From the IMG/VR virus record IMGVR_UViG_2529292906_000010: 47,757 nt of DNA; one strand, given 5' to 3'. Of this stretch, positions 5,451-22,122 are shown in pieces. A model generated the notes under the pieces. The model saw only the letters and a list, made by a program, of their open reading frames with translations. It was not told the DNA's origin and searched no databases. Source of the stretch: a virus. Its lineage: Duplodnaviria > Heunggongvirae > Uroviricota > Caudoviricetes. How positions within the stretch are numbered: position 1 is the stretch's first letter; each line of letters begins with the position of its first letter. The position numbers and the translations under genes are program-made.

Positions 5451-5562
5451 AATTATATAATTATAGATTTATATAAAAAGTGCTTTACAGGTGGGAAAAT
5501 ATTTCCTAGTGTTATACCCGAAACCGAGCGATACCCGCCCTGGTTAAACCGGAGATAACCCG
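5451..5562 (+). promoter_or_regulatory. conserved promoter-leader element, copy A
   Basis: Near-identical to 14348-14464 and 22011-22122; contains TATAATTATA palindrome, TTTACA (-35-like), GGGAAAA(A/T)ATTTCC, conserved leader and GGAGA RBS. Confidence 0.5.
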
Positions 5563-5943
5563 ATGAGCATGATTAAAATCCGCAAAAACGCTTTCCTTAA
5601 AATTCAAACTATCCTGGCTGGTTCTGTTGGCGTGATTTGCCGTTCTTCTTCAAGCCGCATCGATGACGGCTACGATGATGAGTATCGTGTGTCCTCGTGC
5701 GATGAGGCTTTAACCTGGCTGAAGGAGAATCAGGAACGTGCCCAGGTATATCTGGAAACAGAGAACGGCAATCAGATGCTGCGTATTAGCGGTCGTTATG
5801 GATTTGAAACTACATTCATTGCCTATTTTAATCAGGTTTACTTTGACAAGGAGCTGGCCTGGTACACTGATCGCATGAGCAAAAGCGAGCCAGCTCCGAT
5901 TACACCGCCGAACAATAAACCATTTTTATTCCTCGTTAAGTAA
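5563..5943 (+). CDS. hypothetical protein
   Basis: 126-aa ORF immediately after leader copy A. Confidence 0.5.
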   Translation: MSMIKIRKNAFLKIQTILAGSVGVICRSSSSRIDDGYDDEYRVSSCDEALTWLKENQERAQVYLETENGNQMLRISGRYGFETTFIAYFNQVYFDKELAWYTDRMSKSEPAPITPPNNKPFLFLVK

Positions 5944-5954
5944 ACACAATACGT

Positions 5955-5975
5955 AAAGTGTCATTTTGACACTTT
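5955..5975. promoter_or_regulatory. perfect palindrome AAAGTGTCA-TTT-TGACACTTT upstream of HTH regulator
   Basis: 21-bp palindrome ~30 bp upstream of the 6007 start; half-site repeated at 14295-14309. Confidence 0.35.
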
Positions 5976-6006
5976 GCGAGTGTTAATATTGTGCGAGGAG
6001 GATGCT

Positions 6007-6279
6007 ATGACGGGTTATGAATTGAAATTATGGCGTCGTGGGATGAACTGGACGCAGGAGCGAGCCGCCGAAGAATTTGGGATATCGTTGGCTACATATA
6101 AGCGATATGAGAAGGGGGAGCCGCCGAGGGTCATTGAGATGGCCATTCGCGTTCTGTCATTTGACGATATGGTTAAGGATCTTTCACACCTTGATAAAGA
6201 TGCGATTCTGTTAAGGCTGCAAACCCTTGTATGGGAAAAGGTTAAAGTGTCGTCAGAATTGGAACAAGAGATCAAATGA
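6007..6279 (+). CDS. XRE-family helix-turn-helix regulator
   Basis: HTH segment MNWTQERAAEEFGISLATYKRYEKG; GAGGAGGA RBS before ATG 6007. Confidence 0.6.
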   Translation: MTGYELKLWRRGMNWTQERAAEEFGISLATYKRYEKGEPPRVIEMAIRVLSFDDMVKDLSHLDKDAILLRLQTLVWEKVKVSSELEQEIK

Positions 6280-6325
6280 TCCTTTACGGATCGTTTTATG
6301 GTGGTGTAATGTAAGCGCCAGAAAG

Positions 6326-6354
6326 ACAAAAACCGCCTTGCCGGGCGGTTTTCA
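6326..6354. terminator. bidirectional hairpin terminator
   Basis: ACCGCC-TTGCCG-GGCGGT stem followed by TTTT. Confidence 0.45.
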
Positions 6355-7086
6355 GTCTGAAATTTAAATCTTGCTTGGTAGGCTGGATTTAAAAAGACAC
6401 CTCTTGATTGGGGCGGCTTTCTTGCGTCTAAAGATAATCAAATCTTTTTGCGCCTGCAACCCCTTTTTTACTGGTGCCTGTTTCAGACTCACGCTCGCGT
6501 CGTTGTCTTTGCCACTTCGTTGGGTTCGGTGTTTTTGGACGGAGTGGCGCGCGGGTATGCGTACAAGGGGAAAGTGTGCTGACGCAAGCCAGGAACAGCG
6601 ATCTAAACTAAGTCGAGTCTGAGAAAGGCAGGAGTGCGACAACTCGCCTGTGCTCAATGAGCAGAAGAAGGTATATCAGACGACCAATGGCATGATTGTG
6701 GGCCACAGGGCGCACACGGCGGCGAAGCATTGGAAACGATGTGGAGCTATCTGGTGGCATGAGTTCCGGTACTCGATCTCGAGCTTTTTTGATGCTTTTG
6801 AGAAGGGGCCGGAACTCCGGTAAAGGGCACCCTGTATGGGGGGAGGGGGGTTGTGTCTGAAGGGTGGCTATCGGTTATGGTGGAATTATGATGCGTAGAA
6901 AAGCAAGTTTGCTGCAAGCTATTGGGTCCATTATTTCTTTGTTTCCGGCAGTTGATCATTTTCGTCATATGGCGACACGTTCGAGTATGGGCTTGGTGCG
7001 TGACGCTGACGCTATTCGAAAGGATTTTCAGAAAGTCTCTGGTGTTGATAAGAGAGAAAAGAGTAAGGGGCCGTAGCCCCTTGTAG

Positions 7087-8229
7087 TTATGGTCTGCTTT
7101 TCTGTGCCAGCTTATCAGCACATGTTTTTATCAGATCCTGTAGTGTCCTGGCTGGCAGGTTTGCATCCAGTACGCTGAGTATGCTGTTGTGATCTGCTTG
7201 GTCGACTACTTTGCCTGTCGGTGGTAGTAGCTTGAGCTGAGGATTCAGGTTTTCGTCAAAACTGATAAGTGCTCTGGCGTTTCTGAGCAGATCAAGAAGT
7301 AAGGCTGATATCACATCATCTTTAGTCATTGTTGGTAGATTTAGTGCCGCTTTAGTTTTCTCCGTCGCCTTGTCAAACTCTTTGATTAGTGTCTTGCGGT
7401 AGTTTGGTTCCGTTAATAGCCGATGATGTTCTGTTGCCGTTCGGATAATCTTTGTTTCCTGATACAGTCGGTTGTATAGCATTCGCTCGTATTCTGCCTT
7501 TAACACGCTGCTGATAGCGTTAAAGGCTTCAATGTAGGCCAGCTTGATATCCTTCACGCCTGGACCGTCGATACTTTCCATGAGCAAGGTAAATCCGTCT
7601 TTTGTCATGCGATAGATTGTTATTTCGCGGTCGCTTCCTTCCAGCGGTCGTTGTTCTTTAAAGAAGTGACGCGCCGCAGCCGTGCGAGGAATGCGTAACG
7701 CATCGATGGCCATAACGATGGAATTGTTTGTGGTGCTGAATGCTTGGGCAACATCGGCTGAGGTTGTGAGTGGCTCGTTGTTGCACACCTTAACGTAATA
7801 CATTGGTTTAGCGTTGAGCGTATCGACAACCTCACGAGCATTGTTTGGTGAGACGGTTACGGTCGCGGCCGTTTGCGCGTTCTGGTTGAAGTAGCAGTCT
7901 TCCAGCCGTTCGAATACATCCCATGCCTGATCGGTTTCGAGCATTTTAGCGTGACGTGCAGCCCCGCGTTCGGTCCAGAGGATGAGCTTTCTAACGTTAT
8001 TCGCGATGGTTTGAAAATCTCTTAAAGAGATTTTCAAACTTTGGAGATCTGTACCTTTTACAACTATGAAATGTTTTCCTTCTGTAAACCGGGACTTATT
8101 ACGGTGGTGATTTCTGTGAAGACATTCGACGCTACAGCCATATAGTTTGGCAAGCAGCTCCGTGGTGATAACGGGGAGCTGCTTATGCAGGATAGGCTGT
8201 AGGGTGTTAACGGTCGGAAGCGTTTTCAT
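7087..8229 (-). CDS. phage antirepressor (ORF6N/Rha-like N-terminus)
   Basis: 380 aa; N-terminal region resembles ORF6N/Rha antirepressor domains as recalled. Confidence 0.65.
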   Translation of the reverse strand: MKTLPTVNTLQPILHKQLPVITTELLAKLYGCSVECLHRNHHRNKSRFTEGKHFIVVKGTDLQSLKISLRDFQTIANNVRKLILWTERGAARHAKMLETDQAWDVFERLEDCYFNQNAQTAATVTVSPNNAREVVDTLNAKPMYYVKVCNNEPLTTSADVAQAFSTTNNSIVMAIDALRIPRTAAARHFFKEQRPLEGSDREITIYRMTKDGFTLLMESIDGPGVKDIKLAYIEAFNAISSVLKAEYERMLYNRLYQETKIIRTATEHHRLLTEPNYRKTLIKEFDKATEKTKAALNLPTMTKDDVISALLLDLLRNARALISFDENLNPQLKLLPPTGKVVDQADHNSILSVLDANLPARTLQDLIKTCADKLAQKSRP

Positions 8230-8417
8230 TTTGCACCTCCCATAACTACTTTGGTTACGAGGGAGATTTTTGCGACAGAAACAGCGTTATCGTTGCTGGC
8301 GATGCGCATAGCTTCGCGCTCGATGATTTCAGCCAGGCGGAATTTATCGGCGTATGAGGCTTTCTTGAGAAGGATCTTTACGAGGTTGACGTAATAGTCA
8401 TGGGGTAGGTTTGTCAT
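8226..8417 (-). CDS. small protein overlapping antirepressor start (Icd-like position)
   Basis: 63-aa ORF whose stop overlaps the antirepressor start; AAGGGA RBS. Confidence 0.4.
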   Translation of the reverse strand: MTNLPHDYYVNLVKILLKKASYADKFRLAEIIEREAMRIASNDNAVSVAKISLVTKVVMGGAK

Positions 8418-8582
8418 TGTGATGATTCCCTTAAAGGTTAAGGATACTCACCACCGTCAGGTTCCAATCATTGGGTGGTGAGACGTGCAGGGTTGGAACT
8501 ACCGGACACAATGACGAACCGGCGAGTCTTACGACTCCCCCGCACGCCCCACCATAATTTGGGTGTAGCAGTGCTTTACGCA

Positions 8583-8690
8583 TAAAAAAACCGCTAACGC
8601 GGTATGCGCCATTGTGTCTACGGGGTTCCAATCCCGACCGTAGATTTTGCTACGGCTCGGAAAGTGTCCACCAATGGCGCATTCATGTCA
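8583..8690 (-). ncRNA. candidate structured small RNA upstream of antirepressor operon
   Basis: Minus-strand hairpins (GCGCCATTG/CAATGGCGC; TCTACGG/CCGTAGA) ending in CCGCGTTAGCGG + T7 terminator at 8583-8605; no ORF. Confidence 0.25.
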
Positions 8691-9173
8691 ATACGGCGGG
8701 ATTTTAACAGAGACAACCACATAGCGTGGGTTTATTGGTAGGCAGAAACAAAAAAACCGCCCTATTGAGGACGGTTCTTTCGTGCTGATCGGATTCGCGG
8801 TCCTTTCAGCATTACGTTGTTGTATAAACAACCACGCAAGCACAAGCAGCAAGTTAATTTTACCCAAAAGGTAATAATAGTCCACTATTATGCTTCAAAA
8901 AATTGTGGTTCTTGTTGTGCCTGCAAACTCACAGATTGTGGGTAGGTTACTGATTTTGTGAAAATAAACGAGTTTTTTCGTTTAATTTCTTTCCTATTAC
9001 TAATCTTAAAATAATCGTAAAATACCTGTGGACCTTCCCGCCGATTCGCACCCGGGCACCGACTTTAGGGGAGGATTCTCCGTTGCCGTACATGCAAGCA
9101 CAAGCAGCCGTGCTTGCTCTCGCGTTGTTTTCGTCGGTGGGGATGCCGTGAAACGGCCTGTAAGGGCCATACA

Positions 9174-9296
9174 ATGAAAAAATACTGTATGTGTATTTTT
9201 ATCGTTGTTACTGGAGCTTTGTTTACGCCACATGGGGAGGGTTGGAAGATTACTGATAACGCTCTGAATGTGACGATAAACATTAGCAGCAAGTAG
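9174..9296 (+). CDS. small hydrophobic protein (40 aa)
   Basis: MKKYCMCIFIVVTGALFT... with AAGGG RBS; followed by terminator at 9302-9325. Confidence 0.3.
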   Translation: MKKYCMCIFIVVTGALFTPHGEGWKITDNALNVTINISSK

Positions 9297-9301
9297 CGAT
9301 T

Positions 9302-9325
9302 AGGCCCCTTCGGGGGCCTTTTTTA
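9302..9325. terminator. hairpin terminator
   Basis: AGGCCCC-TTCG-GGGGCCT followed by TTTTTT. Confidence 0.6.
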
Positions 9326-9334
9326 TGGTTGAAT

Positions 9335-9517
9335 TTAAACGCTGGAGCGCATTAAGCCTTTCAGAACTGCTTCACGTACCCATTCTGGTCTGGTGGATAG
9401 CAGGGCAAATAAGCGGCCAGCTTGCAGCCGTTTGAGGTCGGTTAGACGAGTTTTCAGTAACCGTGTATATTGTTGTTCGGACATAACAAATTCCCCTTGT
9501 TGTGTCGCGACGGCCAA
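9335..9517 (-). CDS. hypothetical protein
   Basis: 60-aa ORF downstream of partition genes. Confidence 0.35.
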   Translation of the reverse strand: MAVATQQGEFVMSEQQYTRLLKTRLTDLKRLQAGRLFALLSTRPEWVREAVLKGLMRSSV

Positions 9518-9546
9518 CAGTTGGCGCTGGAGGCCGTCACCTTCTC

Positions 9547-9795
9547 TTACTTCTGGTTGTATTGAGCCTTGAGTAACTCAAAAGATTTTGTCAGCACTTC
9601 TTTCAATGACATATCCATTGAGCTGGCGAACGTTTTGTACTCGCGTTTAAATTCAGGGTCGACGTTAAACGCCATTTGTGCCCCACCTGATTTGGTTCTG
9701 GCTGGCGTTTCAGTCGGGTCGAAAACCTGCGGTTGTTCGATCGATGGCGGTACGCCTTTGCTGTTCTTCTTTGGTGGTTTTGATGGTGCGGCCAT
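9547..9795 (-). CDS. ParG-like centromere-binding protein (probable ribbon-helix-helix)
   Basis: 82 aa; Pro/Lys-rich N-terminal tail then short structured C-terminus; directly downstream of parA; AGAGAGGA RBS. Confidence 0.5.
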   Translation of the reverse strand: MAAPSKPPKKNSKGVPPSIEQPQVFDPTETPARTKSGGAQMAFNVDPEFKREYKTFASSMDMSLKEVLTKSFELLKAQYNQK

Positions 9796-9807
9796 GTGTA
9801 TCCTCTC

Positions 9808-9840
9808 TTATATAAATCTATAAAACTATAATTATATATT
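9808..9840. repeat. TATAATTATA palindrome site D (between parA and parG-like gene)
   Basis: Core at 9827-9836; reverse complement carries ATAGTTTTATAGATTTATATAA flank as in leader copies. Confidence 0.5.
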
Positions 9841-10507
9841 ACGCGGCAGTAGTCAGAGCCTCAAGCTGGTTGATAATCCCCTGAATAACGTCGTCTGCTT
9901 TTTTGCGTGGCGCAACGTATGAGCACTCAATGAGGCTTAAGCCCTTATCCTGAGCTTTGCTCAGAGCTGGCTTGTGGGGAATGTACTTATCGACAACAAA
10001 GTATGGCGTATTAGCCAGGTACTCTTGGGCTTCAATATAGTCAGCTTCGTTTTCAGCCGCGCCGGAAAACACCATGCAAATTTTCTTGATTGGTACACCC
10101 TTTTTAACGATGCCGTGAGCTGTGTTAACGGTGGTTTCCAGGTCATCGGTAGAGAATCTGGTTGGCAAAATAACCATATCCAGAAATTCAGAGAGCTTCG
10201 GTACTGATTCAGATGCGTAGGCACCGCCATCAACGATAACCAGGTCGTATACTTCTGATTCGATGATTTTCTGGACTTGTGATGGCGTGCCGCACGGCTG
10301 CGCCGCGATTGCAGGTTCGATATTGTTGGCCATTCTGCGTTGTACCCAACGCGTTACCGTTCCGTTAAGCACATCCATATCGATCAGGCATACATTCCAG
10401 CCAGCCTTTGCATAAGCAACTGCTAAAGCACGAGCAATGGTTGATTTGGTTACGCCGCCTTTTCCGTTGAAAATACCTACAGATATAGTCATTTGTCGAG
10501 ACTCCAT
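9839..10507 (-). CDS. parA: partition ATPase ParA (ParA/MinD family, small type Ib)
   Basis: 222 aa; deviant Walker A GKGGVTKST near N-terminus. Confidence 0.85.
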   Translation of the reverse strand: MESRQMTISVGIFNGKGGVTKSTIARALAVAYAKAGWNVCLIDMDVLNGTVTRWVQRRMANNIEPAIAAQPCGTPSQVQKIIESEVYDLVIVDGGAYASESVPKLSEFLDMVILPTRFSTDDLETTVNTAHGIVKKGVPIKKICMVFSGAAENEADYIEAQEYLANTPYFVVDKYIPHKPALSKAQDKGLSLIECSYVAPRKKADDVIQGIINQLEALTTAA

Positions 10508-10512
10508 GCGTT

Positions 10513-10618
10513 TGATTATATAATTCTATAAATCTATATTTATAGAATGAGGTAAGCATAACCAACTTTTTGGCGGATGAAAAGTGTTTTATATAATTAT
10601 ATAAATCTATAATCATAT
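10513..10618. promoter_or_regulatory. par promoter/centromere-like region with two TATAATTATA-family sites
   Basis: TATAATTCTA at 10518-10527 and TATAATTATA at 10591-10600, directly upstream of parA. Confidence 0.4.
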
Positions 10619-10638
10619 AAGCGGGCGTTAGCCCGCTT
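10618..10638 (-). terminator. hairpin terminator
   Basis: GCGGGC-GTTA-GCCCGC stem after stop of gene 10643-11017. Confidence 0.45.
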
Positions 10639-10642
10639 TCAG

Positions 10643-11017
10643 TCAGAGGTCAGCTATCGTTGATATCAGTTGATTTGCTAGCTGTCGCTGTTTACGTGAG
10701 AGGGTTAGAGCAGCTTCTGAGCGGTCGCTAAGAGGGGTGTTTTCATCGAGAATCATGAGGCATACAGAAATAATAGCCCTGTTATATGCCATCAATGGCT
10801 GGCACAGCTTCGATATCGCTGGCACATCGTATTGTAAGGCCGTTTTGAGGCAGACTTTTTGTTCTGATGCCAGATGAAGGATAGATTCTATCCAGTCGAT
10901 ATCTTTCTCATTATCAATGAGTTGGCATAACATACACTCAATCGCTATGTTCAACGCTTGGATTTCGATTCCAGCAGTGATCAGAGTTTCGTTTTTATTG
11001 GCTGTATGTAATTCCAT
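10643..11017 (-). CDS. hypothetical protein
   Basis: 124-aa ORF downstream of the repressor gene. Confidence 0.5.
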   Translation of the reverse strand: MELHTANKNETLITAGIEIQALNIAIECMLCQLIDNEKDIDWIESILHLASEQKVCLKTALQYDVPAISKLCQPLMAYNRAIISVCLMILDENTPLSDRSEAALTLSRKQRQLANQLISTIADL

Positions 11018-11050
11018 GCGTAGCCTCTTTTATACTTTTTCATGTTGTCA

Positions 11051-11069
11051 AAACCACAAAGCGTGGTTT
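11051..11069. promoter_or_regulatory. operator-like palindrome AAACCAC-N5-GTGGTTT (may also act as terminator)
   Basis: AAACCACAAAGCGTGGTTT followed by T-run. Confidence 0.35.
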
Positions 11070-11109
11070 TTTTGAGCGTAGAAATGCACGGCTTTCGCCG
11101 TGCTGTGTA

Positions 11110-11772
11110 TCATAACCAGTTGACAACACTAACTACGCGGCCAAGAACTTTATAACGCTTAAATTCCTCGTTATTCAGATGCTTAGTGTTCATTTCAGCA
11201 TCCCTTTCGGTTGACAGCATAACAGCATTGTCACCCGGTATGACTCTACAGTGCCTCAAAACAACCAGGCCATTTCTGTCTTCAAGGGCATAGATCCCCT
11301 CATGAACCTCTGTATCGTCTGTATTAATCAGGACTTGGGAGCCAGGGGATATTGTTGGTGACATTAGCTTTAGCTCATCGTTGCTCTGGAGAACAGACAG
11401 AGACGATGGGTTGATGTTCTTGCTTCGTAGAATCTCCTGTTCTATCGCCAGCACTGGCTTTTCTCCGGCGTGCGATGCTATGTCATTTTTTATAGCTACA
11501 AGCCCAGGAATAACAGGTGCGTTAGTATTCTGGGGTGGGAACGGGTTATCTGTTAAGCACGCGATATAAGGCGCTGATGCTTTCAGGGCGTGCGCGATTT
11601 TCTTGATGGCAGGTATAGATGGTTGTCTTAATCCGGCCTCATAGTTCTGCAAGGTGCTTAAGCCTATTCCAGTGACTTGCTGGAGATCTCCGGCAGTCAT
11701 GCCGGATTGTTTCCGTAGAGTCTGAATGCGCAGACCTATTTCTTTCTTGATGTTCTCGTCGTTGCTTTTCAT
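11110..11772 (-). CDS. CI-type repressor (N-terminal HTH, C-terminal S24/LexA-like domain)
   Basis: 220 aa; XRE HTH (LQQVTGIGLSTLQNYEAG); C-terminus has MSP and KVLGRVV motifs at the positions of the LexA-type Ser/Lys dyad; divergent from Cro-like gene. Confidence 0.75.
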   Translation of the reverse strand: MKSNDENIKKEIGLRIQTLRKQSGMTAGDLQQVTGIGLSTLQNYEAGLRQPSIPAIKKIAHALKASAPYIACLTDNPFPPQNTNAPVIPGLVAIKNDIASHAGEKPVLAIEQEILRSKNINPSSLSVLQSNDELKLMSPTISPGSQVLINTDDTEVHEGIYALEDRNGLVVLRHCRVIPGDNAVMLSTERDAEMNTKHLNNEEFKRYKVLGRVVSVVNWL

Positions 11773-11807
11773 TTCTCATCAATCGTGAATGGGGGGTTAT
11801 TTATACA

Positions 11808-11929
11808 TTACCACATTTAGTGGTTTTCACACGGTAAGACGAGAGGTAGACCACAAATAGAAGGTTATTTTTGTTTCCCCATTGAAAAACTCACGATTTG
11901 TGGTTTTAATACCACATATCGTGGTTTAA
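11808..11929. promoter_or_regulatory. immunity operator/promoter region (OR-like) between repressor and Cro-like gene
   Basis: Palindromes ACCACATTTAGTGGT (11810-11824) and ACCACATATCGTGGT (11911-11925) plus half-sites at 11850 and 11891; TTGAAA -35-like at 11882. Confidence 0.5.
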
Positions 11930-11943
11930 CTGGAGTTAGTTAA

Positions 11944-12438
11944 ATGACCTTTCAGGAGTGGGTTGATGAAAATGGAGGCCAAATTGGTGTTGCCAGAAAG
12001 TTTGGCTTTACGTCATCACTGATTGGTGCCTGGTATCGCTTCGAGAGATTCCCTCGTGCGGATAACCTGACGCTGCTGGTGGCGTATTCGGAAGGCCGGA
12101 TTAATGTCCAGCAATGGGCGGCAGATTTTGCCGAACGTCAGCGCCAGCGTAGCGATGGCACATCGGTTCGGCAGAACAAGATCAAAGGGAATCTCCCTGT
12201 TAACTGCTTATCAAGGCTGAAAGCGGTTTTCTCTGAGCTGGGGATACCTGCGGAGCGTTGCAATCTACGCGGTCCGCGATTCATTGCTCGCTGGAAACAC
12301 TCACACGTAACCGTTTCAGAGGTTCGTGATGCGATTGCCGTGCTGGAGTTTAAGAATAAAGATTCCAGCGATATCGAGCTGATTCATAAGGAGATTAGCA
12401 ACGCCCGGCGTTCAGCACTTGGGAGGCTTGAGGAATGA
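11944..12438 (+). CDS. Cro/YdaS-like HTH regulator
   Basis: 164 aa; N-terminal Cro-like segment (GGQIGVARKFGFTSSLIGAWY); divergent from repressor. Confidence 0.5.
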   Translation: MTFQEWVDENGGQIGVARKFGFTSSLIGAWYRFERFPRADNLTLLVAYSEGRINVQQWAADFAERQRQRSDGTSVRQNKIKGNLPVNCLSRLKAVFSELGIPAERCNLRGPRFIARWKHSHVTVSEVRDAIAVLEFKNKDSSDIELIHKEISNARRSALGRLEE

Positions 12439-13584: not shown

Positions 13585-13913
13585 GATATACCGGCTTTCG
13601 CAAACCAGCGACCAGAAAAAGCAAATACGGCAATAAAAAAACGGTTGTCGATGATATCGCTTTTGATAGCAAAAAAGAGGCTGATTACTACTGCGAACTG
13701 AAGCTACTGAGAAAAGCTGGCCGCGTTGTGACGTTTCTTATGCAGGTGCCTTTTCATCTGCCAGGTGGTGTCGTTTATAAACTTGATTTCATGGTGTTTT
13801 ATGACGATGGGACGATTGATTGTGTCGACACTAAAGGTGTGCGAACAGACGTCTACATCATGAAGAAAAAGCAGGTAGAGGCGCTTTATCCCGTCACGAT
13901 ACGGGAGATCTGA
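13581..13913 (+). CDS. hypothetical phage protein
   Basis: 110-aa basic protein (KYGNKKTVVDDIAFDSKKEADYY). Confidence 0.5.
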   Translation: MRYTGFRKPATRKSKYGNKKTVVDDIAFDSKKEADYYCELKLLRKAGRVVTFLMQVPFHLPGGVVYKLDFMVFYDDGTIDCVDTKGVRTDVYIMKKKQVEALYPVTIREI

Positions 13914-14294: not shown

Positions 14295-14347
14295 AAGTGT
14301 CATTTTGAGCTGTTTTGGTGATTTGTAGGCACCGGGAATATCGGAAA

Positions 14348-14464
14348 ATCTATAAATATATAATTATAGATTTATATAAAAAGTGCTTTACAGGTGGGAA
14401 AAAATTTCCTAAGGTTATACCCAAAACCGAGCGATACCCGCCCTGGTTAAACCGGAGAAATCTG
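14348..14464 (+). promoter_or_regulatory. conserved promoter-leader element, copy B
   Basis: Near-identical to copies A and C; TATAATTATA core at 14359-14368. Confidence 0.5.
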
Positions 14465-15532
14465 ATGAATAAACAAGTAATTATTTCTGACTGGATCAAC
14501 AACCCTAACAGCCTGTTGAGCACTGATACTGGCTATAGATTACGTCATGTTAATGGCCGTATGGTCAAAAGCGATGAGCACGAAACCTTTTTCGTTGTTG
14601 AAGACGATGGACGTCTTTATGAGGATGGTCACTCTTATGAATCCCAAACAGGTTGTATCCCTGCAGAGTTGGTAGACGTAACAGAAAAGCTGCGCAAAGC
14701 ATGGCTTGAACAGCAGCAGCGCGGAGATGATTACGTAAATACCTATCAGGAACGCCAGAACGCGCGTCTTGCCCGATATATTGCTCGTGCAGAAAAAGCC
14801 AGAAAAGAAGGTGCGGTGGCGCATAAGCGAGCGCATGAACTGTTGGATGTGATCCCGTTAGGCCAGCCGATTTTAGTTGACCATTATAGCGCGAAAGGCC
14901 ATCGCCGCCGTTTGTCTAAAGCTGATGCGTTATTCAGAAAATCGTTTGTTGAGTGTGAAAGCAGAGCATCGTACTACGAAAGCAAAGCCGCAGGTGTCGG
15001 CCGTAATGGAGTTTCGTCTGATGATCCTGATGCGCTATTTAAGTTGCTTCGTAAGCTGCAAGGCTGCATGAAGTCACACATCAAAATGAAGGCCGCAAAT
15101 AAGGCTATTCGCAAATACAAAAAAGACCAATTACAGCAGCTTTCCGCATTAATTGACCTTGAGTTTACTGAAAGCGAAGCCAAAGGGTTACTCGCCGGAG
15201 ATTTCTGTGGGCACATTGGCTTCCCTTCATACTCACTGAGTAACAATAATGCCGAAATCAAACGACTACAGAGCCGTATTAAGGAGCTTGAATCGGTCAA
15301 GTCTGTAACAGGAGCACAGCGCGAAGAATACGACGGCTTTTCTATGGAGATAGATCCAGAGGATAACCGTATCCTGTTTTATTTCCCTGGCAAACCAGAG
15401 GCAAACATTCGTTCGCTGCTTAAATCACGCGCCTTTAAGTGGAGTCCAACCCGTAATGCATGGGTTCGCAAGATTACTCCAAACGCCCTGGCTGATGCCC
15501 GATATCTGAAAGAATCGCTATTGAAAGCCTGA
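14465..15532 (+). CDS. hypothetical protein (356 aa)
   Basis: Starts at ATG 14465 after GGAGA RBS; the longer ORF from 14315 would read through the leader. Confidence 0.6.
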   Translation: MNKQVIISDWINNPNSLLSTDTGYRLRHVNGRMVKSDEHETFFVVEDDGRLYEDGHSYESQTGCIPAELVDVTEKLRKAWLEQQQRGDDYVNTYQERQNARLARYIARAEKARKEGAVAHKRAHELLDVIPLGQPILVDHYSAKGHRRRLSKADALFRKSFVECESRASYYESKAAGVGRNGVSSDDPDALFKLLRKLQGCMKSHIKMKAANKAIRKYKKDQLQQLSALIDLEFTESEAKGLLAGDFCGHIGFPSYSLSNNNAEIKRLQSRIKELESVKSVTGAQREEYDGFSMEIDPEDNRILFYFPGKPEANIRSLLKSRAFKWSPTRNAWVRKITPNALADARYLKESLLKA

Positions 15533-15566
15533 CAGTAAGTCTACGGCGGGATGTCTCCCGCTGTAT

Positions 15567-15598
15567 ATAGAATTATATATTTATATAAATGTATAAGG
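15567..15598. repeat. TATAATTATA-family site F (variant AATTATATA)
   Basis: ATAGAATTATATATTTATATAAATG immediately upstream of gene 15610. Confidence 0.4.
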
Positions 15599-15609
15599 AC
15601 GCCTCGACA

Positions 15610-15891
15610 ATGAAACGCAAAATTATTAACCCCCAAGATGTGATTAATTTCCTGACCGATCACCCATGTTCAAAAGTGGACGTAATCGCGGAACACATTG
15701 GTGTGTCGCAGAACTCTATGCGTTGCAGACTGAGAAGCATGGTTGCCGAAGGACAGATAACAACCAGGAAAATAAATGGTTGCCTGTACTACTCCGCTAA
15801 ACCGGAATTGCCATTTGGCATGAATCCTAACTCCATGTTGTTTAACACCTTATTAGCCAAAGTTAAGCCGTTGAGAGGGGCTGTGGCATGA
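15610..15891 (+). CDS. hypothetical DNA-binding protein
   Basis: HTH-like segment VDVIAEHIGVSQNSMRCRLRSM; alternative start 15589. Confidence 0.5.
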   Translation: MKRKIINPQDVINFLTDHPCSKVDVIAEHIGVSQNSMRCRLRSMVAEGQITTRKINGCLYYSAKPELPFGMNPNSMLFNTLLAKVKPLRGAVA

Positions 15892-16441: not shown

Positions 16442-17121
16442 AAGAACGTGGTGTTGTTTTTAATGACGATATGGTTAGGGCCATCCTCGAAGGAAGGAAG
16501 ACGCAGACTCGCCGACCCGTAAAAAATGTCAGGGCCGATAACTGCCTGGTTATCCGTAAACCGACAAAGAAACGCAATGGTGTCTATACCCACGTTATGG
16601 ATGCACCTGAACATAGTTTATGCCCGTTCGGTAACGTTGGTGATCGCATATGGGTCCGTGAAGCGTGGGCGATATTAGGCAATGAGGATGGTTGCAGTGT
16701 GGACTGGAACGACAACCTTTGTCGTGGCGATGAGAAGAACGCAGCAAGGATTTATCGGGCCAGTTGTGAGCAAAAACCGGGGGATTATGGCTTATGGTCG
16801 ATACCCGATGATGCCGACTGGAAGCCTCACACTGTGAATGAAAAGTTTGATGGCGGGTGGTGTCCATCAATTCACATGCCGCGCTGGGCTTCGCGTATTT
16901 TGCTGGAAATTACCGACGTGCGTGTGGAACGGCTGCATGACATGAGCGAGGCAGATGCTAAAGCGGAAGGCGCATCTCCGGCGACGTACAAGATTACACA
17001 GCCGGAAGCTGTTTATCGCGTTGGTTTTGGTGATATCTGGCGCGGTATTTACGGGCAAGAGAACTGGCTATCTAACCCGTGGGTATGGGTAATTGAGTTT
17101 AAGCGTATTCAGGAAGCATAA
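16438..17121 (+). CDS. conserved phage protein of unknown function
   Basis: 227 aa; N-terminal FNDDMVRAILEGRKTQTRRP motif. Confidence 0.5.
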   Translation: MKERGVVFNDDMVRAILEGRKTQTRRPVKNVRADNCLVIRKPTKKRNGVYTHVMDAPEHSLCPFGNVGDRIWVREAWAILGNEDGCSVDWNDNLCRGDEKNAARIYRASCEQKPGDYGLWSIPDDADWKPHTVNEKFDGGWCPSIHMPRWASRILLEITDVRVERLHDMSEADAKAEGASPATYKITQPEAVYRVGFGDIWRGIYGQENWLSNPWVWVIEFKRIQEA

Positions 17122-17123
17122 CT

Positions 17124-17465
17124 ATGAGCAAATCACTTAATGCACGTTGTATTCGCCGTTGGGAAGTCAAATTTAAGCCTATTTGTGATTCGAAAGTTAG
17201 TCCTCACATGCGTAAGAGTTTTTTGTGTGGGATGCGTGAATTGGGGCTTATTACGGCTGAAAACATGGTTGAAAGCATGGCTGAGAAAAATGCCAAGTTT
17301 GACTACGACGGCAAGGACACTGGCTGGTCGCCTGAGTTTTCTAACTGGTATGAAGCGCATAGAGAAAAGTATCGTAAAGAGGCTCGTGACCATCTGGATG
17401 AAGAAGCCACAAACGATGAGATCGATAAAGAAATTGAAACAGAGCTGGAGTCTTGGAATGACTAA
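17124..17465 (+). CDS. hypothetical protein
   Basis: 113-aa ORF with acidic C-terminus. Confidence 0.5.
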   Translation: MSKSLNARCIRRWEVKFKPICDSKVSPHMRKSFLCGMRELGLITAENMVESMAEKNAKFDYDGKDTGWSPEFSNWYEAHREKYRKEARDHLDEEATNDEIDKEIETELESWND

Positions 17466-18183
17466 CAGCACAGCAATTAATTATCAGGCGCTGCGTGAGA
17501 TAGCAAAACAGGCAACACCAGACGAATGGGTCGCATTTATTTCGACGGATACTGGTACTTATGCGGTGCACACGCCCGGTGATGAACGATGTGAAGACGT
17601 TATCAAATGGACCGGCTTTGATGGACAGAAAAATGCAGAGAACAACGCTCGTTATGTTGCCGCGTTCAACCCAAAGGTTGCTTTGGCACTACTGGATGAA
17701 CGGGAAGCCAAAGACAAAGCATGGTCCGCACAGGACAACCATATCAACCAGCAGGCTGAACGAATTGAATCGCTGGAGAAGAAGAATGGAGAGCTGGGCA
17801 GAGAGCTGGAATCCGCAGAGAAGCGCATTGCAGAACTGAAAAAACAATGCGCTGAATGGGAGCGGAAAGCATTAAGCAATTTTGAAGAGTGTGCTGCGAT
17901 GGCTGAACGTATCGAAGAGTTGGAGCAGGCTACCACAGGGCAGGACGCCAATGTAAACAGCCAACAGGAACGCGTGGCTCAATCAGCTAATAGGCACGTA
18001 TATCACTACAACGCAGTGAGCAATGTTAGCGGCATTACTATGTCCGGGATTGCGCAGTCACCTTTCAGAATCAAATCGCAATCCGACCTTGAAGAGTTTA
18101 AAAGCGCACTTAGCAAGGTTTGTGGTTTCCATGCAACAGCAGTCACATCTCTTTCATATCTTGGGCGTGAGGAAGAAGAATAA
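17458..18183 (+). CDS. Ead/Ea22-like protein
   Basis: Starts MTNSTAINYQALREIAKQATPDEW (recalled Ea22-like N-terminus) then coiled-coil; the longer ORF from 17140 is not supported. Confidence 0.5.
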   Translation: MTNSTAINYQALREIAKQATPDEWVAFISTDTGTYAVHTPGDERCEDVIKWTGFDGQKNAENNARYVAAFNPKVALALLDEREAKDKAWSAQDNHINQQAERIESLEKKNGELGRELESAEKRIAELKKQCAEWERKALSNFEECAAMAERIEELEQATTGQDANVNSQQERVAQSANRHVYHYNAVSNVSGITMSGIAQSPFRIKSQSDLEEFKSALSKVCGFHATAVTSLSYLGREEEE

Positions 18184-18187
18184 AGCG

Positions 18188-18379
18188 ATGAAAAACCGTA
18201 AAGCAAAGATGCTTATCTCCCGTGTATACAAACTTTGCTATCCCAGCCAGTGGTTGAGAGTTAGCAATCGCCGTGTGGTGTTGTACTTATATTCTGGAAT
18301 TGCCAGAGAGGGAGTCAAAGAGAAGCGCAGCGCGGCGCAAAACCGCTGGAAAAAACACTTGCGCACTAAAGGAGCCTGA
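18188..18379 (+). CDS. hypothetical small protein
   Basis: 63-aa ORF from ATG 18188. Confidence 0.3.
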   Translation: MKNRKAKMLISRVYKLCYPSQWLRVSNRRVVLYLYSGIAREGVKEKRSAAQNRWKKHLRTKGA

Positions 18380-18589
18380 TATGTCTATTGCCGCAAGTTA
18401 CACCATGCATCTCTATTGTGACTGCCGCCAGTGTACGGAAGGTGTATATCCAGTGCCAGACTTCGGTGAGTATATCGGTACGTCATGGGCTGGCTGTGCA
18501 AAAGAGGCGCGCAAGGATGGCTGGCGAATAAGCAAAGACAAAACGCGTGCTTTTGCGCCAGGGCATAAAGTTTTGAGGATTAACAAATG
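18380..18589 (+). CDS. hypothetical Cys-rich small protein
   Basis: 69 aa from ATG 18380; CDCRQC motif. Confidence 0.4.
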
Positions 18590-18889
18590 ACCACTTTTAC
18601 CGACAAAGAACTGATTAAAGAAATCAAAGAGCGCATAGGCAGCTTGGATGTGCGAGACAATATTGAGCGCCGGGCTTATGAAATAGCGTTAGCCTTGCTG
18701 GAAGCAGAACCGGTGGCATATCAGTATCGCCAGTGGGATGCAGAATATGATGAATGGGGAGAATGGGAAGATTGCGGGGAATGTGCTTTCGAATGGTTTG
18801 TTGAGGAAGAGAAATGTCAGGGGGCAGGTGTTCAGACCCGTAAGCTATATGCCGCGCCGCCAGTTTCGGTAACTCCGGGTGTTGGATAA
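18587..18889 (+). CDS. hypothetical protein
   Basis: 100-aa ORF, overlapping start. Confidence 0.5.
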   Translation: MTTFTDKELIKEIKERIGSLDVRDNIERRAYEIALALLEAEPVAYQYRQWDAEYDEWGEWEDCGECAFEWFVEEEKCQGAGVQTRKLYAAPPVSVTPGVG

Positions 18890-19264
18890 GCTGTAGTGAG
18901 AATCCATGCGCTTACGAGCAGTATTCAGAGCGGGTAATGAAGCACATACAACCGAAAACATGGCAGAAACTGGACTCTATGGGAGTTAAGTTGGAGAAGA
19001 TTACTCAACTTAAGCAGTGGCATATCGGCGAATATTATGGAAGTCTTGGCCGGGATGTTCGTTTGGCAAAAAGTTGAGTATTGTTTTTTATTGATTGATT
19101 AACCACGATTTGAAGGTTTTTTATGGGAAAACCTTGTTTTAGGTGGTAACTGGGTGTAGTGTTTCATTTAACGTAGTAAAACTGCGTTAAGCGATTACCG
19201 CGTAATTTGTTGCTTTATGAAGCCCTGCCTTTTCGGTGGGGCTTTTTTTTTAACGAGGATTTCA

Positions 19265-19660
19265 ATGTCAGCAGAACCAATTTCCGGTACGGCCGTTGCT
19301 GCTGGTGGCCTGATGGGTGCCAGCGTTTTTGGTATTGCAACTGGTATTGATTACGGCGTTGTATTCGGGGCATTTGCTGGCGCTGTTTTCTATGTTGCTA
19401 CAGCGGTGAATATTAGCCGTCTCAAGCTGATTGGCTATTTCTTTACATCGTTCATTGTTGGAGTGATTGGAGCGCCGTTAGTTGGCTCATTTCTTGCCAA
19501 ATGGACCAGCTACAACGATCGTCCTCTTGATGCGCTTGGTGCGGTTATTGTGGCTGCATTGACAATTAAAATCCTCACGTTCGTAAACAGCCAGGATCTC
19601 GGTAGCATCTTTGGAATGCTTTCCCGCTTACGTGGAGGGGGTTCAAATGGTAAGCAGTGA
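19265..19660 (+). CDS. putative holin
   Basis: 132 aa with several hydrophobic helices and charged C-terminus; GAGGA RBS; first gene of lysis cassette. Confidence 0.5.
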   Translation: MSAEPISGTAVAAGGLMGASVFGIATGIDYGVVFGAFAGAVFYVATAVNISRLKLIGYFFTSFIVGVIGAPLVGSFLAKWTSYNDRPLDALGAVIVAALTIKILTFVNSQDLGSIFGMLSRLRGGGSNGKQ

Positions 19661-19943
19661 CCCGTCAGCACTGATTAATGCGGTGCTTTGCACAGTAATA
19701 GTAATGGCGCTGATGCTTTATCGACGGAAAGACTCCAGGCATCGTCCATTTGTTTCCTTTCTGGCTTATATCTACGTCATTGTATACGCCAATGTTCCCT
19801 TCCGTTATGTGTTCGGTCTTTATCAAGAATCCCACTGGCTGGTGGTTATTGGAAATCTGATTATCTGCATCGTTGTTCTGTATTTCAGGGGCAATCTGGC
19901 GCGGATAGTTGACGCATTAGGGTTTAATCATGACCAAAGATGA
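19647..19943 (+). CDS. membrane protein (holin/antiholin candidate)
   Basis: 98 aa, hydrophobic segments, between holin and endolysin. Confidence 0.45.
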   Translation: MVSSDPSALINAVLCTVIVMALMLYRRKDSRHRPFVSFLAYIYVIVYANVPFRYVFGLYQESHWLVVIGNLIICIVVLYFRGNLARIVDALGFNHDQR

Positions 19944-20472
19944 GATTTTTAACAGCGTTCTTGGAAAAGAGGGCGGCTATGTGGATCACCCTGACGACAA
20001 GGGAGGCCCAACAAAGTGGGGCATTACTCAGAACACTGCCCGTGCTCATGGATACCGTGGCGATATGCGCGATTTAACCCGCGAACAGGCACTGGAAATC
20101 CTTGAGGCTGATTACTGGTACGGACCACGCTTTGATCAGGTGGCCGCATTATCCTCTGATATTGCCGCAGAGCTGTGTGACACGGGGGTGAACATGGGGC
20201 CAACAGTGGCGTCAAAAATGCTTCAACGCTGGCTGAATGTGTTCAACCTGCGCGGGAAGCTGTATCCCGATTTGGATGCAGACGGACGAATCGGTCCACG
20301 TACCATTAATGCGCTACGTGCTTATCTTGGGAATCGGGGAAAAGACGGCGAACGGGTGATGCTGACGTCGCTGAACTGTACGCAGGGCGAACGCTATCTG
20401 GAGCTGGCGGAGAAGCGCGAGGCTAATGAGTCGTTTGTCTACGGCTGGATGAAAGAGCGAGTGGTGGTATGA
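19930..20472 (+). CDS. endolysin, GH108-type N-acetylmuramidase with peptidoglycan-binding domain
   Basis: GGYVDHPDDKGGPTKWGIT signature near N-terminus. Confidence 0.85.
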   Translation: MTKDEIFNSVLGKEGGYVDHPDDKGGPTKWGITQNTARAHGYRGDMRDLTREQALEILEADYWYGPRFDQVAALSSDIAAELCDTGVNMGPTVASKMLQRWLNVFNLRGKLYPDLDADGRIGPRTINALRAYLGNRGKDGERVMLTSLNCTQGERYLELAEKREANESFVYGWMKERVVV

Positions 20473-20747
20473 CTGGTTTGAAAGCCGTTTTGTCATTTAT
20501 CGGCACCGTTATATTGGTTGCATTCGGTGCGTTTGGTTTTGGTCGTATGAAGGGGCGAGAAAAGGCCGAAGATGAAGCTGAAAAGCAGCGCATTAATGAG
20601 AATGCAGCCGCCGTAAAAGCCACTGCGGAGCGGCGTATAGAAGTGACAAAAGAGGTGGGGAATGTACAGCAGAGTGTTAACCATATGGCTGATGACGATG
20701 TTGATCGCGAGCTGCGGGAGTCGTGGAAGCGTCCCGGTGGTGGTTGA
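20469..20747 (+). CDS. i-spanin (Rz-like)
   Basis: N-terminal TM helix then charged coiled-coil; directly after endolysin. Confidence 0.6.
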   Translation: MTGLKAVLSFIGTVILVAFGAFGFGRMKGREKAEDEAEKQRINENAAAVKATAERRIEVTKEVGNVQQSVNHMADDDVDRELRESWKRPGGG

Positions 20748-20871
20748 TACCGCCTGTGATTGGGTAAAGCCCATCTACCTGACTGATCACGACATCGATG
20801 TTATGGACCGCCAGACAAAGAAAGATATTCTGGCTCATAACAGGGCATGGGAAATCAACTGCCGAAAGTAA
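20662..20871 (+). CDS. o-spanin (Rz1-like lipoprotein), overlapping i-spanin
   Basis: Lipobox LIASC; probable start at internal Met (20692/20698). Confidence 0.55.
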   Translation: MYSRVLTIWLMTMLIASCGSRGSVPVVVDTACDWVKPIYLTDHDIDVMDRQTKKDILAHNRAWEINCRK

Positions 20872-20912
20872 TATATATTTCTATAATTATATAAATATAT
20901 AGTTACAACATT
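20871..20912. repeat. TATAATTATA palindrome site G
   Basis: Core at 20882-20891 in AT-rich DNA after lysis cassette. Confidence 0.45.
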
Positions 20913-20946
20913 CTATGCGCTTTTCTCATGGCGCACGCATCAACCA

Positions 20947-21029
20947 TGTTTGTCTGATATGCCGCCGCGCCCAAAAATCCTGAATTTATTGGCTGGGATT
21001 TTCGTGCGCGGCGCCACACCAGACAAACA
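20947..21029. repeat. long imperfect inverted repeat upstream of tRNA
   Basis: TGTTTGTCTG...GCCGCCGCGC (20947-20970) pairs with GCGCGGCGC...CAGACAAACA (21006-21029); loop has AAAATCC/GGATTTT. Confidence 0.4.
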
Positions 21030-21039
21030 AATCAAATAT

Positions 21040-21115
21040 GGCCCCTTAGCTTAGTGGTTAGAGCAGGCGACTCATAATCGCACGGTCATCGGTTCAAATC
21101 CGGTAGGGGCCACCA
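21040..21115 (+). tRNA. tRNA with CAU anticodon (Met or Ile2/lysidine type)
   Basis: 76-nt cloverleaf: acceptor GGCCCCT/AGGGGCC, anticodon loop CTCATAA, T-loop GGTTCAAATCC, 3' CCA; recalled as close to E. coli tRNA-Ile2. Confidence 0.8.
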
Positions 21116-21423
21116 ATTCACCCTCACACATAAAGATAAGCGCGGTGGAGTTACTTCTTCGTGCTCATCTTTATGCGTGCCTGGTGCACATTTCGGGAAG
21201 CCGTTGGTTAGTGAGTACAGGCAGGGCCTGTTATCCGCAAAGGGGTAAAAGCTGGAGCGGCACGGAACTGTAGCCGTGTTACCAAAACAGCGTTGTCGGG
21301 CGATATCCGGCACACAACAGGCAAGGGCATTAATCAGTCTGGTTAGTGCCCTTTTCGTTGTGTCTGCTGTAGAGCTGGCCAGCGTTATGACTGCCGGAGA
21401 TAAGCGCCGGAGGCACAACTAAC

Positions 21424-22011
21424 ATGGAGGCAATTGCATTGTTTAATCTGATTTATGCAGATCCCCCCTGGGAATACAAAGATAAGTGTAAGGATGGGAA
21501 TCGTGGAGCTGGTTTTAAGTATCCAACGATGAAAGCTGAGGATATTGCTCGTATTCCTGTCTGGCAGCTTGCTAATCCTGAATCGTGTTTGTTGGCCATG
21601 TGGTGGGTTCCGACTCAGCCAGAAGAAGCGTTGCTGGTGGTGAAAGCATGGGGATTCAGGCTTATGACCATGAAGGGCTTCACATGGAACAAATGTGGTA
21701 GCCGACAACCAGATAAGCTGGTGATGGGGATGGGGCATATGACTCGTGCAAACAGTGAAGATTGCTTGTTTGCGGTAAAAGGCAAATTGCCGACCCGCCT
21801 TGATGCGGGGATCATTCAGTCGTTTACATCGCCTCGTCTGGAGCATTCTCGGAAGCCTGATGTGGTTCGTGACAAGCTGGTAAGGCTGTTAGGTGATGTT
21901 CCTCGTATTGAGCTGTTTGCTCGCGGTGATTTACCTGATGGTTGGCATGGCTGGGGCAACCAGTGCAATGGAGGTATCCAGTTGCATGATGCTCTCTGGC
22001 AAGTGGCATAG
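21424..22011 (+). CDS. orphan N6-adenine DNA methyltransferase, MT-A70 family
   Basis: DPPW motif (IYADPPWEY) near N-terminus; no adjacent restriction endonuclease. Confidence 0.75.
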   Translation: MEAIALFNLIYADPPWEYKDKCKDGNRGAGFKYPTMKAEDIARIPVWQLANPESCLLAMWWVPTQPEEALLVVKAWGFRLMTMKGFTWNKCGSRQPDKLVMGMGHMTRANSEDCLFAVKGKLPTRLDAGIIQSFTSPRLEHSRKPDVVRDKLVRLLGDVPRIELFARGDLPDGWHGWGNQCNGGIQLHDALWQVA

Positions 22012-22122
22012 AATTATATAATTATAGATTTATATAAAAAGTGCTTTACAGGTGGGAAAAAATTTCCTAAGGTTATACCCGAAACCGAGCGATACCCGCC
22101 CTGGTTAAACCGGAGAAATCTG
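22011..22122 (+). promoter_or_regulatory. conserved promoter-leader element, copy C
   Basis: Near-identical to copies A and B; core at 22017-22026. Confidence 0.5.

Follow-up and report, generated by a model that had tools for sequence, protein, structure and literature searches.

Phased 8-bp repeat arrays at the parA locus and at dispersed gene starts of an enterobacterial phage-plasmid: candidate iterons of a ParG-like partition adaptor

Plasmid partition systems offer the closest described parallels to a set of short AT-rich repeat arrays in a stretch of viral DNA (IMG/VR record IMGVR_UViG_2529292906_000010, Caudoviricetes; hereafter the window, meaning the whole 47,757-nucleotide stretch). 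The window is a ~48-kb enterobacterial phage-plasmid, and three of its eight arrays, B, C and D, flank or follow the partition gene parA. In plasmid TP228, ACTC boxes in direct and inverted orientations are regularly separated by 4-bp AT-rich spacers and are each bound by one ParG dimer; a 12-box site, parH, and an 8-box site, OF, both act as centromeres, and OF also represses parFG (Wu et al., 2011; PMC3130281). The window resembles the TP228 ParF-ParG locus in having a small ParA-type ATPase followed by a protein of ~80 amino acids (aa) with a flexible N-terminal tail and a predicted C-terminal ribbon-helix-helix (RHH). It also has 4-bp boxes with 4-bp spacers, arrayed at an 8-bp period upstream of the operon, where they would act as centromere and operator alike. 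In contrast to TP228, the box is TATA rather than ACTC, the protein is a distant relative that falls below the Pfam ParG model, and the arrays hold 3–4 units instead of 12 plus 8, lie on each side of the promoter and recur at five loci elsewhere.

Other systems connect a partition adaptor to distant sites. The RHH adaptor omega of pSM19035 (Inc18) binds 7-bp repeats over three promoter regions (copS, delta and omega) and activates its ParA only with four or more contiguous repeats (PMC9499535). Most window arrays are four units long, matching this requirement, and a single RHH protein is proposed here too as both partition adaptor and regulator of several operons. However, omega is an unrelated protein that reads WATCACW heptads in a Firmicute plasmid, whereas the window is a phage-plasmid whose repeats also lie in operon-internal spacers; with a period of 8 bp and the unit TATAKAWT, its arrays fall outside the Inc18 omega regulon. 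The SopAB system of the phage-plasmid N15 has four dispersed centromere sites, IR1–4 (Ravin and Lane, 1999, cited in PMC7205306). N15 is like the window in having its centromere sites scattered across the genome and not clustered beside the par operon, and unlike it in being a type Ia system in which a helix-turn-helix (HTH) ParB, SopB, is paired with single 16-bp palindromes. Domain analysis of the 82-aa window adaptor finds no HTH, and its sites are tandem iterons, which places them apart from dispersed centromeres of the N15 type.

The par2 locus of pB171, parC1-parA-parB-parC2, is of type Ib (PMC4270457). As in the window, its repeat clusters lie upstream and downstream of the par genes. 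The pB171 repeats are 6 bp long, with about 17–18 per cluster, and we know of no dispersal beyond the locus. KorB of RK2/IncP has a dozen dispersed operators and controls transfer, replication and maintenance operons; it is a cytidine triphosphate-dependent HTH ParB that binds 13-bp palindromes. Its dispersed sites are comparable to arrays that we describe below in type IV secretion system (T4SS) spacers of Cronobacter plasmid pESA2 and of a cfr plasmid, although KorB has no sequence or fold relation to the window adaptor. Set beside these systems, the window arrays are a real, non-random feature that is best explained as iterons of a type Ib adaptor spread to other promoters and spacers. The system is of a known kind; its adaptor family is uncharacterised and its TATA-type iteron unusual.

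Eight phased arrays in the window

A sequence-only reading of the window had pointed to a 10-bp palindrome, TATAATTATA, at eight intergenic sites. It occurs exactly six times, at 5456, 9827, 10592, 14359, 20882 and 22017, against 0.05 expected, with no shuffled sequence giving more than one match; with one mismatch allowed there are 15 matches against 2.3 expected. Markov models trained on the 6.1 kb of intergenic DNA in the window, arrays included, agree with the shuffles, giving expectations of 0.015 (Markov-1) and 0.084 (Markov-3) and a maximum of 2. Together with the phased-pattern counts below, these figures rule out chance or low complexity as the origin of the motif. Literature searches for the motif, or for a phage-plasmid together with an RHH centromere, found nothing relevant.

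As had been claimed, each of the eight loci is intergenic, and the extended flank ATAGATTTATATAA is found at sites A, E and G on the plus strand and at B and D on the minus strand. The individual positions held up apart from small shifts: the copy placed at 10591 starts at 10592, the variant TATAATTCTA lies at 10519–10528 rather than 10518, and what had been read as one variant at 15571–15579 is a pair of overlapping one-mismatch copies at 15568–15577 (TAGAATTATA) and 15576–15585 (TATATTTATA). The palindrome itself is real but secondary. Every exact copy is the seam (...TATAAT/TATA...) of two phased 8-bp units, as where TATATAAT adjoins a second unit beginning TATA, and for this reason the palindrome is ruled out as the recognition unit.

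The underlying feature is an array of three or four, mostly four, phased 8-bp units with the consensus TATAKAWT, in which a TATA box is followed by a 4-bp AT spacer. The main units are TATATAAT, TATAGATT, TATATAAA and TATAGAAT. A scan of the window for at least three phased TATAnnnT units returns exactly eight loci, all between 5.4 and 22 kb, and none elsewhere. The phased pattern TATANNNTTATANNNTTATA gives 41 matches at up to two mismatches, every one inside these eight loci, against 0.40 expected. Autocorrelation is strongest at lag 8 in all eight arrays (0.61–0.77), a preference that was absent from four other AT-rich tracts compared. Iterons of RepA or a replication origin were considered and ruled out, given that the period is 8 bp and that the arrays are distant from repA and travel with par rather than rep. 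A search of the window against Rfam placed no known RNA family at the arrays; its matches fall elsewhere.

At the par locus, the predicted parA promoter has array D on one side and array C on the other, and the gap separating parA from the gene for the ParG-like protein is taken up by array B (Table 1); array C is followed by GGAGTCTCGACAAATG, which contains the Shine-Dalgarno (SD) sequence and the parA start. Such short tandem repeats adjoining the par promoter are usual for type Ib loci, and a similar layout occurs in five other replicon lineages. Namely, the array-promoter-array arrangement of parA is also present in Serratia sp., pESA2, Pseudomonas and Vibrio, and an array in the spacer after parA is also present in the cfr plasmid NZ_CP037908.1, pESA2, Pseudomonas and S. 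marcescens. The ParA proteins are 217–222 aa long, with a CbiA/ParA/MipZ domain at residues 12–191 and no N-terminal extension, as in the small ATPases of type Ib, and the nearest solved partition relative of the window ParA is ParF (4dzz).

Immediately after their arrays, parA and the MarR-like gene have in common an unusual stretch at the site of translation initiation, (A)GGAnnyCTCGACAA(A)TG (window 10493–10514 and 15598–15612; relative L007, 8097–8110 and 13716–13730). The shared stretch is present in the E. coli and Salmonella elements and in both of those from Serratia.

Arrays A, E and G each form the 5′ end of a 127-nt direct repeat, whose copies are fused to three unrelated genes encoding a 126-aa protein, a DUF3560 protein and a 98-aa protein. 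The repeat has the predicted features of a promoter-leader cassette: an A-tract, a −35 element (TTTACA) just downstream of the array, a 17-bp spacer, a −10 element (TAAGGT or TAGTGT), a leader of ~50 nt, the SD GGAGA and an ATG. Transcription is predicted to start ~7 nt past 5512, 14415 and 22073 on the plus strand for the three cassettes, and ~7 nt past 10555 on the minus strand for parA. In an alignment across clades the A-tract is invariant and the −35/−10 position, an inverted repeat in the spacer and the SD are conserved, with the array being clade-specific. Array H stands directly before a gene start, and an equivalent array, with the same ...CTCGACAATG junction, recurs in Salmonella and in the two Serratia elements. 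Array F is solitary and lies beyond the lysis cassette.

Several further observations concern the cassette. Its region after the array (5478–5562, 14381–14464 and 22039–22122) has equivalents in relatives L005, L007 and L011, with cargo genes that are unrelated between lineages, and there are three copies in the window and four in Salmonella. The conserved inverted repeat in the promoter spacer reads TGGGAAAAAATTTCCTA in one form and TAGGAAAAAAAGTCCTA in the other, and the leader hairpin shows two compensatory pairs between clades (AACC:GGTT vs GGCC:GGCC). The inverted repeat and the hairpin hint at a second regulator and/or a structured 5′ untranslated region beside the SD.

Table 1. Arrays, predicted promoters and neighbouring features (window positions unless another replicon is named)
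Feature	Position	Strand	Description
Array A	5446..5477	+	CATGGAAT TATATAAT TATAGATT TATATAAA; includes palindrome 5456-5465
Cassette copy 1	5478..5565	+	A-tract; predicted -35 TTTACA 5484-5489; 17-bp spacer with inverted repeat; predicted -10 TAGTGT 5507-5512
Cassette copy 1, 3′ part	to 5565	+	~50-nt leader; SD GGAGA 5551-5555; ATG 5563 of 126-aa gene
immI module parts	ORF6N antirepressor 7087-8229; C4 antisense RNA 8471-8559; isrK-like RNA 8584-8656	-	also small icd-like open reading frames
ParG-like gene	9547..9795	-	82 aa; disordered basic N-terminal tail, then predicted strand-helix-helix (RHH)
Array B	9807..9838	-	TATATAAT TATAGTTT TATAGATT TATATAAG; fills parA/ParG-like gene spacer, abuts SD AGAGGA 9801-9806
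parA	9839..10492	-	217-aa Walker-type partition ATPase, type Ib; start at 10492 as annotated in relatives
Array C	10515..10546	-	TCTATAAA TATAGATT TATAGAAT TATATAAT; starts 8 bp past predicted parA promoter -10, ~+5 to +40
Predicted parA promoter	10555..10583	-	-35 TTTTCA 10578-10583; 17-bp spacer; -10 TATGCT 10555-10560; between arrays D and C
Array D	10588..10619	-	TATATGAT TATAGATT TATATAAT TATATAAA; directly after terminator of upstream gene, ends 4 bp before predicted parA -35
Array E	14349..14380	+	TCTATAAA TATATAAT TATAGATT TATATAAA
Cassette copy 2	14381..14467	+	predicted -35 14387-14392 and -10 TAAGGT 14410-14415; SD 14454-14458; ATG 14465 of DUF3560 gene
Array H	15566..15597	+	TATAGAAT TATATATT TATATAAA TGTATAAG; abuts GACGCCTCGACA and ATG 15610 of MarR-like winged-helix gene
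Array F	20872..20903	.	TATATATT TCTATAAT TATATAAA TATATAGT; alone after lysis cassette; kept in Salmonella relative
tRNA-Met (CAT) gene	21040-21115	+	137 bp downstream of array F, between lysis cassette and MT-A70 methylase gene
Array G	22007..22038	+	CATAGAAT TATATAAT TATAGATT TATATAAA
Cassette copy 3	22039..22125	+	predicted -35 22045-22050 and -10 22068-22073; SD 22112-22116; ATG 22123 of 98-aa gene
Dispersed arrays, cfr plasmid NZ_CP037908.1 (L010)	11985-12012, 13762-13787		
Dispersed arrays, pESA2 (L015)	3253-3272, 3755-3782, 7917-7936, 25743-25762, 27506-27539		

Arrays and adaptors across lineages

The window represents a complete or near-complete phage-plasmid with many close relatives. 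Non-mobilizable plasmids of ~48 kb from E. coli, E. fergusonii, Klebsiella and Salmonella are 96–99% identical to it across the 18 kb tested, the isolated Yersinia phages vB_YpM_39, 41 and 44 are also close, and the plasmid of E. coli ATCC 25922 (NZ_CP009073.1) is 100% identical over a 136-bp test segment. The arrays are kept in an isolated infectious phage, Yersinia vB_YpM_41, and in at least 60 plasmids. Annotated relatives share the gene order repA, a RelE/ParE toxin-antitoxin pair, an ORF6N antirepressor, parA and a CI-like repressor, followed by an early operon (Ref, DUF1064), DUF3560, the lysis cassette, an MT-A70 methylase and myovirus structural genes. Two other candidates for the family were ruled out: the 'pseudolysogenic' phage vB_YpM_HQ103 is an unrelated 32-kb P2-like phage, and pSLy3 belongs to the SSU5 supergroup.

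In a Salmonella relative whose adaptor is 90% identical, all eight arrays are retained with minor drift. Fine-scale co-variation between the E. coli and Salmonella elements was rejected as evidence, being drift only (TATAGATT to TATAGAAT at the cassettes and not at array B) and therefore uninformative. Two Serratia phage-plasmids are more distant, with adaptors 40–46% identical to that of the window; they keep the regulatory and maintenance module and differ in their virion modules, one being a myovirus and the other a siphovirus. Their arrays occupy matching types of position, at three promoter-leader cassettes, on both sides of the parA promoter and at an H-type site, and in one of the two a further array separates parA from the adaptor gene. 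In all there are six array loci in Serratia sp. and about nine in S. marcescens. The Serratia unit, whether at par or at dispersed sites, is TAAAKAAW or TATTTAAA rather than TATAKAWT. For the dispersed arrays, the proportion of 6-mers shared with par arrays is 66–94% within a clade and 16–41% between clades, and TATA tetramers in dispersed arrays number 29 in the E. coli element versus 1–2 in Serratia.

Arrays of the same design accompany homologous ParA/adaptor pairs on replicons of other kinds. An IS26/cfr conjugative plasmid (MOBC-MPF_T) carries TATA-type arrays over its parA promoter and in the parA/adaptor spacer, and pESA2 has the complete array-promoter-array layout as well as the spacer array. 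In a Pseudomonas avellanae plasmid, TAGCTAAT units flank TTGCAC-N16-TATACT and also occupy the spacer, and in a Vibrio plasmid nnACGAAW units form inverted and direct clusters around the promoter. None of these four plasmids carries the phage regulators of the window.

The two MOBC/MPF_T plasmids also have arrays away from par. In the cfr plasmid the phased pattern gives 14 matches against 0.64 expected, including matches in the virB9-virB10 spacer and in another T4SS spacer, each abutting an SD. In pESA2, dispersed arrays lie in the mobC-nuclease spacer, in the spacer between the nuclease and a hypothetical gene, upstream of a restriction-modification operon, between two T4SS genes and in the virB9-virB10 spacer, so that the last of these carries an array in both plasmids. 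Their presence in T4SS, mobC-nuclease and restriction-modification spacers suggests a KorB-like regulon.

A truncated copy of cassette A lies in the cfr plasmid NZ_CP037908.1 (L009, 4001–4048), where IS26 has cut it to 48 nt of array and promoter that are 100% identical. Together with the neighbouring RelE/ParE module it stands beside the conjugative plasmids' own par locus, and it is also found in CP100008.1 and NZ_CP140467.1. The occurrence of this copy in cfr conjugative plasmids points to exchange between phage-plasmids and conjugative plasmids.

The candidate adaptor and competing explanations

The gene directly downstream of parA encodes a protein with a proline/lysine-rich N-terminal tail (K..KG.PP) followed by ...AQMAFNVDPEFKREYKTFASSMDMSLKEVLTKSFELLKAQ. 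An exhaustive profile search recovered 103 homologues of ~75–85 aa, and among 76 aligned family members there are Pfam matches to RHH_10 (18), Antitox_RHH (8), 56B_RHH (3) and ParG (2). Searched against the PDB, the family profile gives weak matches to RHH protein 56B and TP228 ParG (E 0.2–0.34), and hhalign aligns the entire RHH domain of the adaptor with ParG at a probability of 64% and E 6e-5 (residues 29–66 of the ParG sequence used are confirmed by the PDB match). In the AlphaFold2 model, residues 1–40 are disordered and helices span 47–59 and 62–80, at a predicted local distance difference test (pLDDT) score of 65; this is the predicted helix pattern of an RHH monomer. Direct searches with the 82-aa sequence returned noise or close relatives only from the PDB and a word-indexed protein database. 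The window protein is unmatched by the ParG model PF09274, which only 2 of the 76 aligned members touch, and we therefore call it ParG-like by architecture and distant homology, as a probable distant RHH relative and not a member of PF09274.

We consider it likely that the eight arrays are iteron arrays of this ParG-like type Ib centromere-binding adaptor, serving as multiple centromeres plus operators. That the motif might be a type Ib centromere had been one suggestion of the sequence-only reading, and it is supported by arrays that flank the parA promoter and fill the parA/ParG-like spacer, by ParA/ParG-like cassettes on unrelated replicons that carry their own 8-bp iterons, and by dispersed arrays that co-vary with the par arrays. 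Because arrays sit both at the par genes and at five other promoters or gene starts, one protein may segregate the plasmid and tune several operons.

From the precedents of TP228, omega and N15, we propose that adaptor dimers coat each array, one dimer of the 82-aa protein binding each iteron and neighbouring dimers binding cooperatively; the complex envisaged is an adaptor dimer on TATATAATTATAGATT DNA. Arrays D and C, which sandwich the parA promoter, would provide autoregulation, and D, C and B together would form the centromere, at which the basic N-terminal tail of the adaptor could engage the type Ib ParA ATPase. The other five arrays would give the adaptor extra sites for loading. At A, E and G it would cover the A-tract/UP-element position upstream of the cassette −35, most likely damping transcription. 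Array H, before a gene start, and the solitary array F might each be an extra centromere or loading site, or a roadblock along the long rightward string of genes.

Several points weigh against this explanation. The window adaptor has no Pfam match at E≤0.01, a Foldseek search with its monomer model found nothing and is uninformative, and the RHH assignment draws on weak profile matches and a model of low confidence. A sigma-70 consensus scan of the window left the cassette and parA promoters below threshold, uncalled; they are predicted from conservation across lineages, and we retain them because −35, spacing and −10 are conserved across clades while the spacers differ. No convincing promoter adjoins array F. 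AT-only tracts rich in TATAAT-like hexamers could be bound by RNA polymerase, H-NS or other nucleoid proteins, and arrays upstream of a −35 could activate instead of repress. Finally, the co-variation between the E. coli and Serratia elements cannot name the partner protein, because each carries a single co-inherited module. What appears decisive for the partner, as far as sequence comparison reaches, is that on unrelated backbones, too, homologous ParA/adaptor pairs come with 8-bp iterons of their own, at matching places in the par locus.

More tentatively, the ParG-like protein might be a global silencer of a 'TATA-iteron regulon' common to phage-plasmids and MOBC/MPF_T plasmids, and thereby a copy-number-sensing switch linking partition to the phage programme; we regard this as possible rather than probable. 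In that case the cargo genes, which vary, would be driven by a portable promoter-leader cassette whose UP-element position is covered by the arrays. These genes would burst into expression on entry into a naive cell that lacks the adaptor and be damped in the stable plasmid state, possibly firing a second time once the eight arrays per genome, multiplied by lytic replication, titrate the adaptor away.

Explanations that dispense with the adaptor fare worse. Generic AT-rich promoter furniture, such as UP elements, stacked −10-like TATAAT hexamers or nucleation sites for H-NS, Fis or IHF, read by host proteins alone, would account for arrays that are nearly pure A/T with perfect TATAAT hexamers, that are confined to intergenic DNA and that in four cases finish with an A-tract where a predicted promoter has its UP-proximal position. 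However, we think this unlikely: other AT-rich tracts lack the strict 8-bp phasing, units are clade-specific (TATA, TAAA, TAGCTAAT, ACGAAW) despite the RNA polymerase and nucleoid proteins that the hosts have in common, the arrays move with ParA/ParG-like cassettes to unrelated backbones, and several fill operon-internal spacers too small for a promoter.

It is more doubtful still that another phage regulator binds the arrays in a lysis-lysogeny network of the kind run by C1 of phage P1, with the par locus as just one target. P1 C1 operators are asymmetric 17-bp sites, ATTGCTCTAATAAATTT, at many promoters. The candidates here would be the MarR-like protein encoded at 15610, the HTH protein encoded at 6007 and a 124-aa protein beside parA. 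A P1-like immI module (C4 antisense RNA, isrK and ORF6N antirepressor) is present, arrays stand ahead of several rightward operons, and the 124-aa and MarR-like genes are conserved in the Serratia relatives. The sequence-only reading had likened the sites to the C1 network of P1; a multi-site network does remain plausible, with arrays abutting the −35 of four conserved promoters, but the likeness to C1 does not hold, as a scan with the C1 consensus gave zero matches in the window at up to three mismatches. Moreover, the CI-like repressor has dispersed operators of its own (ACCAC-N5-GTGGT), and tandem 8-bp iterons are typical of RHH proteins and not of HTH or winged-helix dimers (PMC3130281). 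Nor is a separate phage regulator needed, because ParA/ParG-like pairs in plasmids without these phage genes have arrays built in the same way.

Least probable of all is a role in mRNA for the arrays that end right at an SD (B, C, H and arrays in pESA2 and the cfr plasmid, among them those of T4SS spacers), as AU-rich translation enhancers or sites for S1 or RNase E with the DNA repeat incidental: A, E, G and D lie upstream of predicted promoters and would stay untranscribed, so that it could not apply to them, clade-specific units with 8-bp phasing are unexpected for S1 enhancers, and an array filling a short intergenic spacer also explains adjacency to the SD.

If adaptor binding to the arrays is confirmed, an uncharacterised family (PHROG 6024, ~100 representative clusters) would gain a function as type Ib centromere-binding proteins, with an unusual, TATA-box-like iteron. 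A phage-plasmid family spanning E. coli (including the reference strain ATCC 25922), Salmonella, Yersinia phages and Serratia would then wire its partition adaptor to several other operons, the same kind of wiring as in omega, KorB and N15 SopB. The eight compact arrays offer sequence-defined handles for stability, incompatibility and reporter work, and the clade-specific units would form a natural specificity series for RHH-DNA recognition.

Other modules and repeats in the window

Upstream of the antirepressor, Rfam identifies isrK and a P1-type C4 antisense RNA, and it has two further matches in the window, to a ryfA-like RNA and a tRNA. The first two belong to a P1-type immI module at 7087–8656 on the minus strand, in an element whose main repressor is lambda-CI-like. 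The ryfA match is strong (142 bits, full length) and lies at 9028–9324 on the plus strand, between the ParG-like gene and the c4 region; it may mark a type I toxin-antitoxin or small RNA locus on the phage-plasmid.

The CI-type operator is itself dispersed, with perfect copies at 2262–2276, 11053–11067, 11810–11824 and 11911–11925. Two of them precede repA (by ~40 bp) and the 124-aa gene, respectively, the other two lie in the divergent cI/early region, and a near-copy with one mismatch lies at 8716–8730, upstream of isrK/c4. These positions suggest that the CI-like repressor also controls replication and immI.

Two longer repeats were seen outside the array-bearing region. Three tandem 132-bp repeats (100, 89 and 65% identity) lie at 46278–46673, near the 3′ end of the window, and a repeat with a 120-bp period lies at 40638–40919, within a structural gene of the tail-fibre region.

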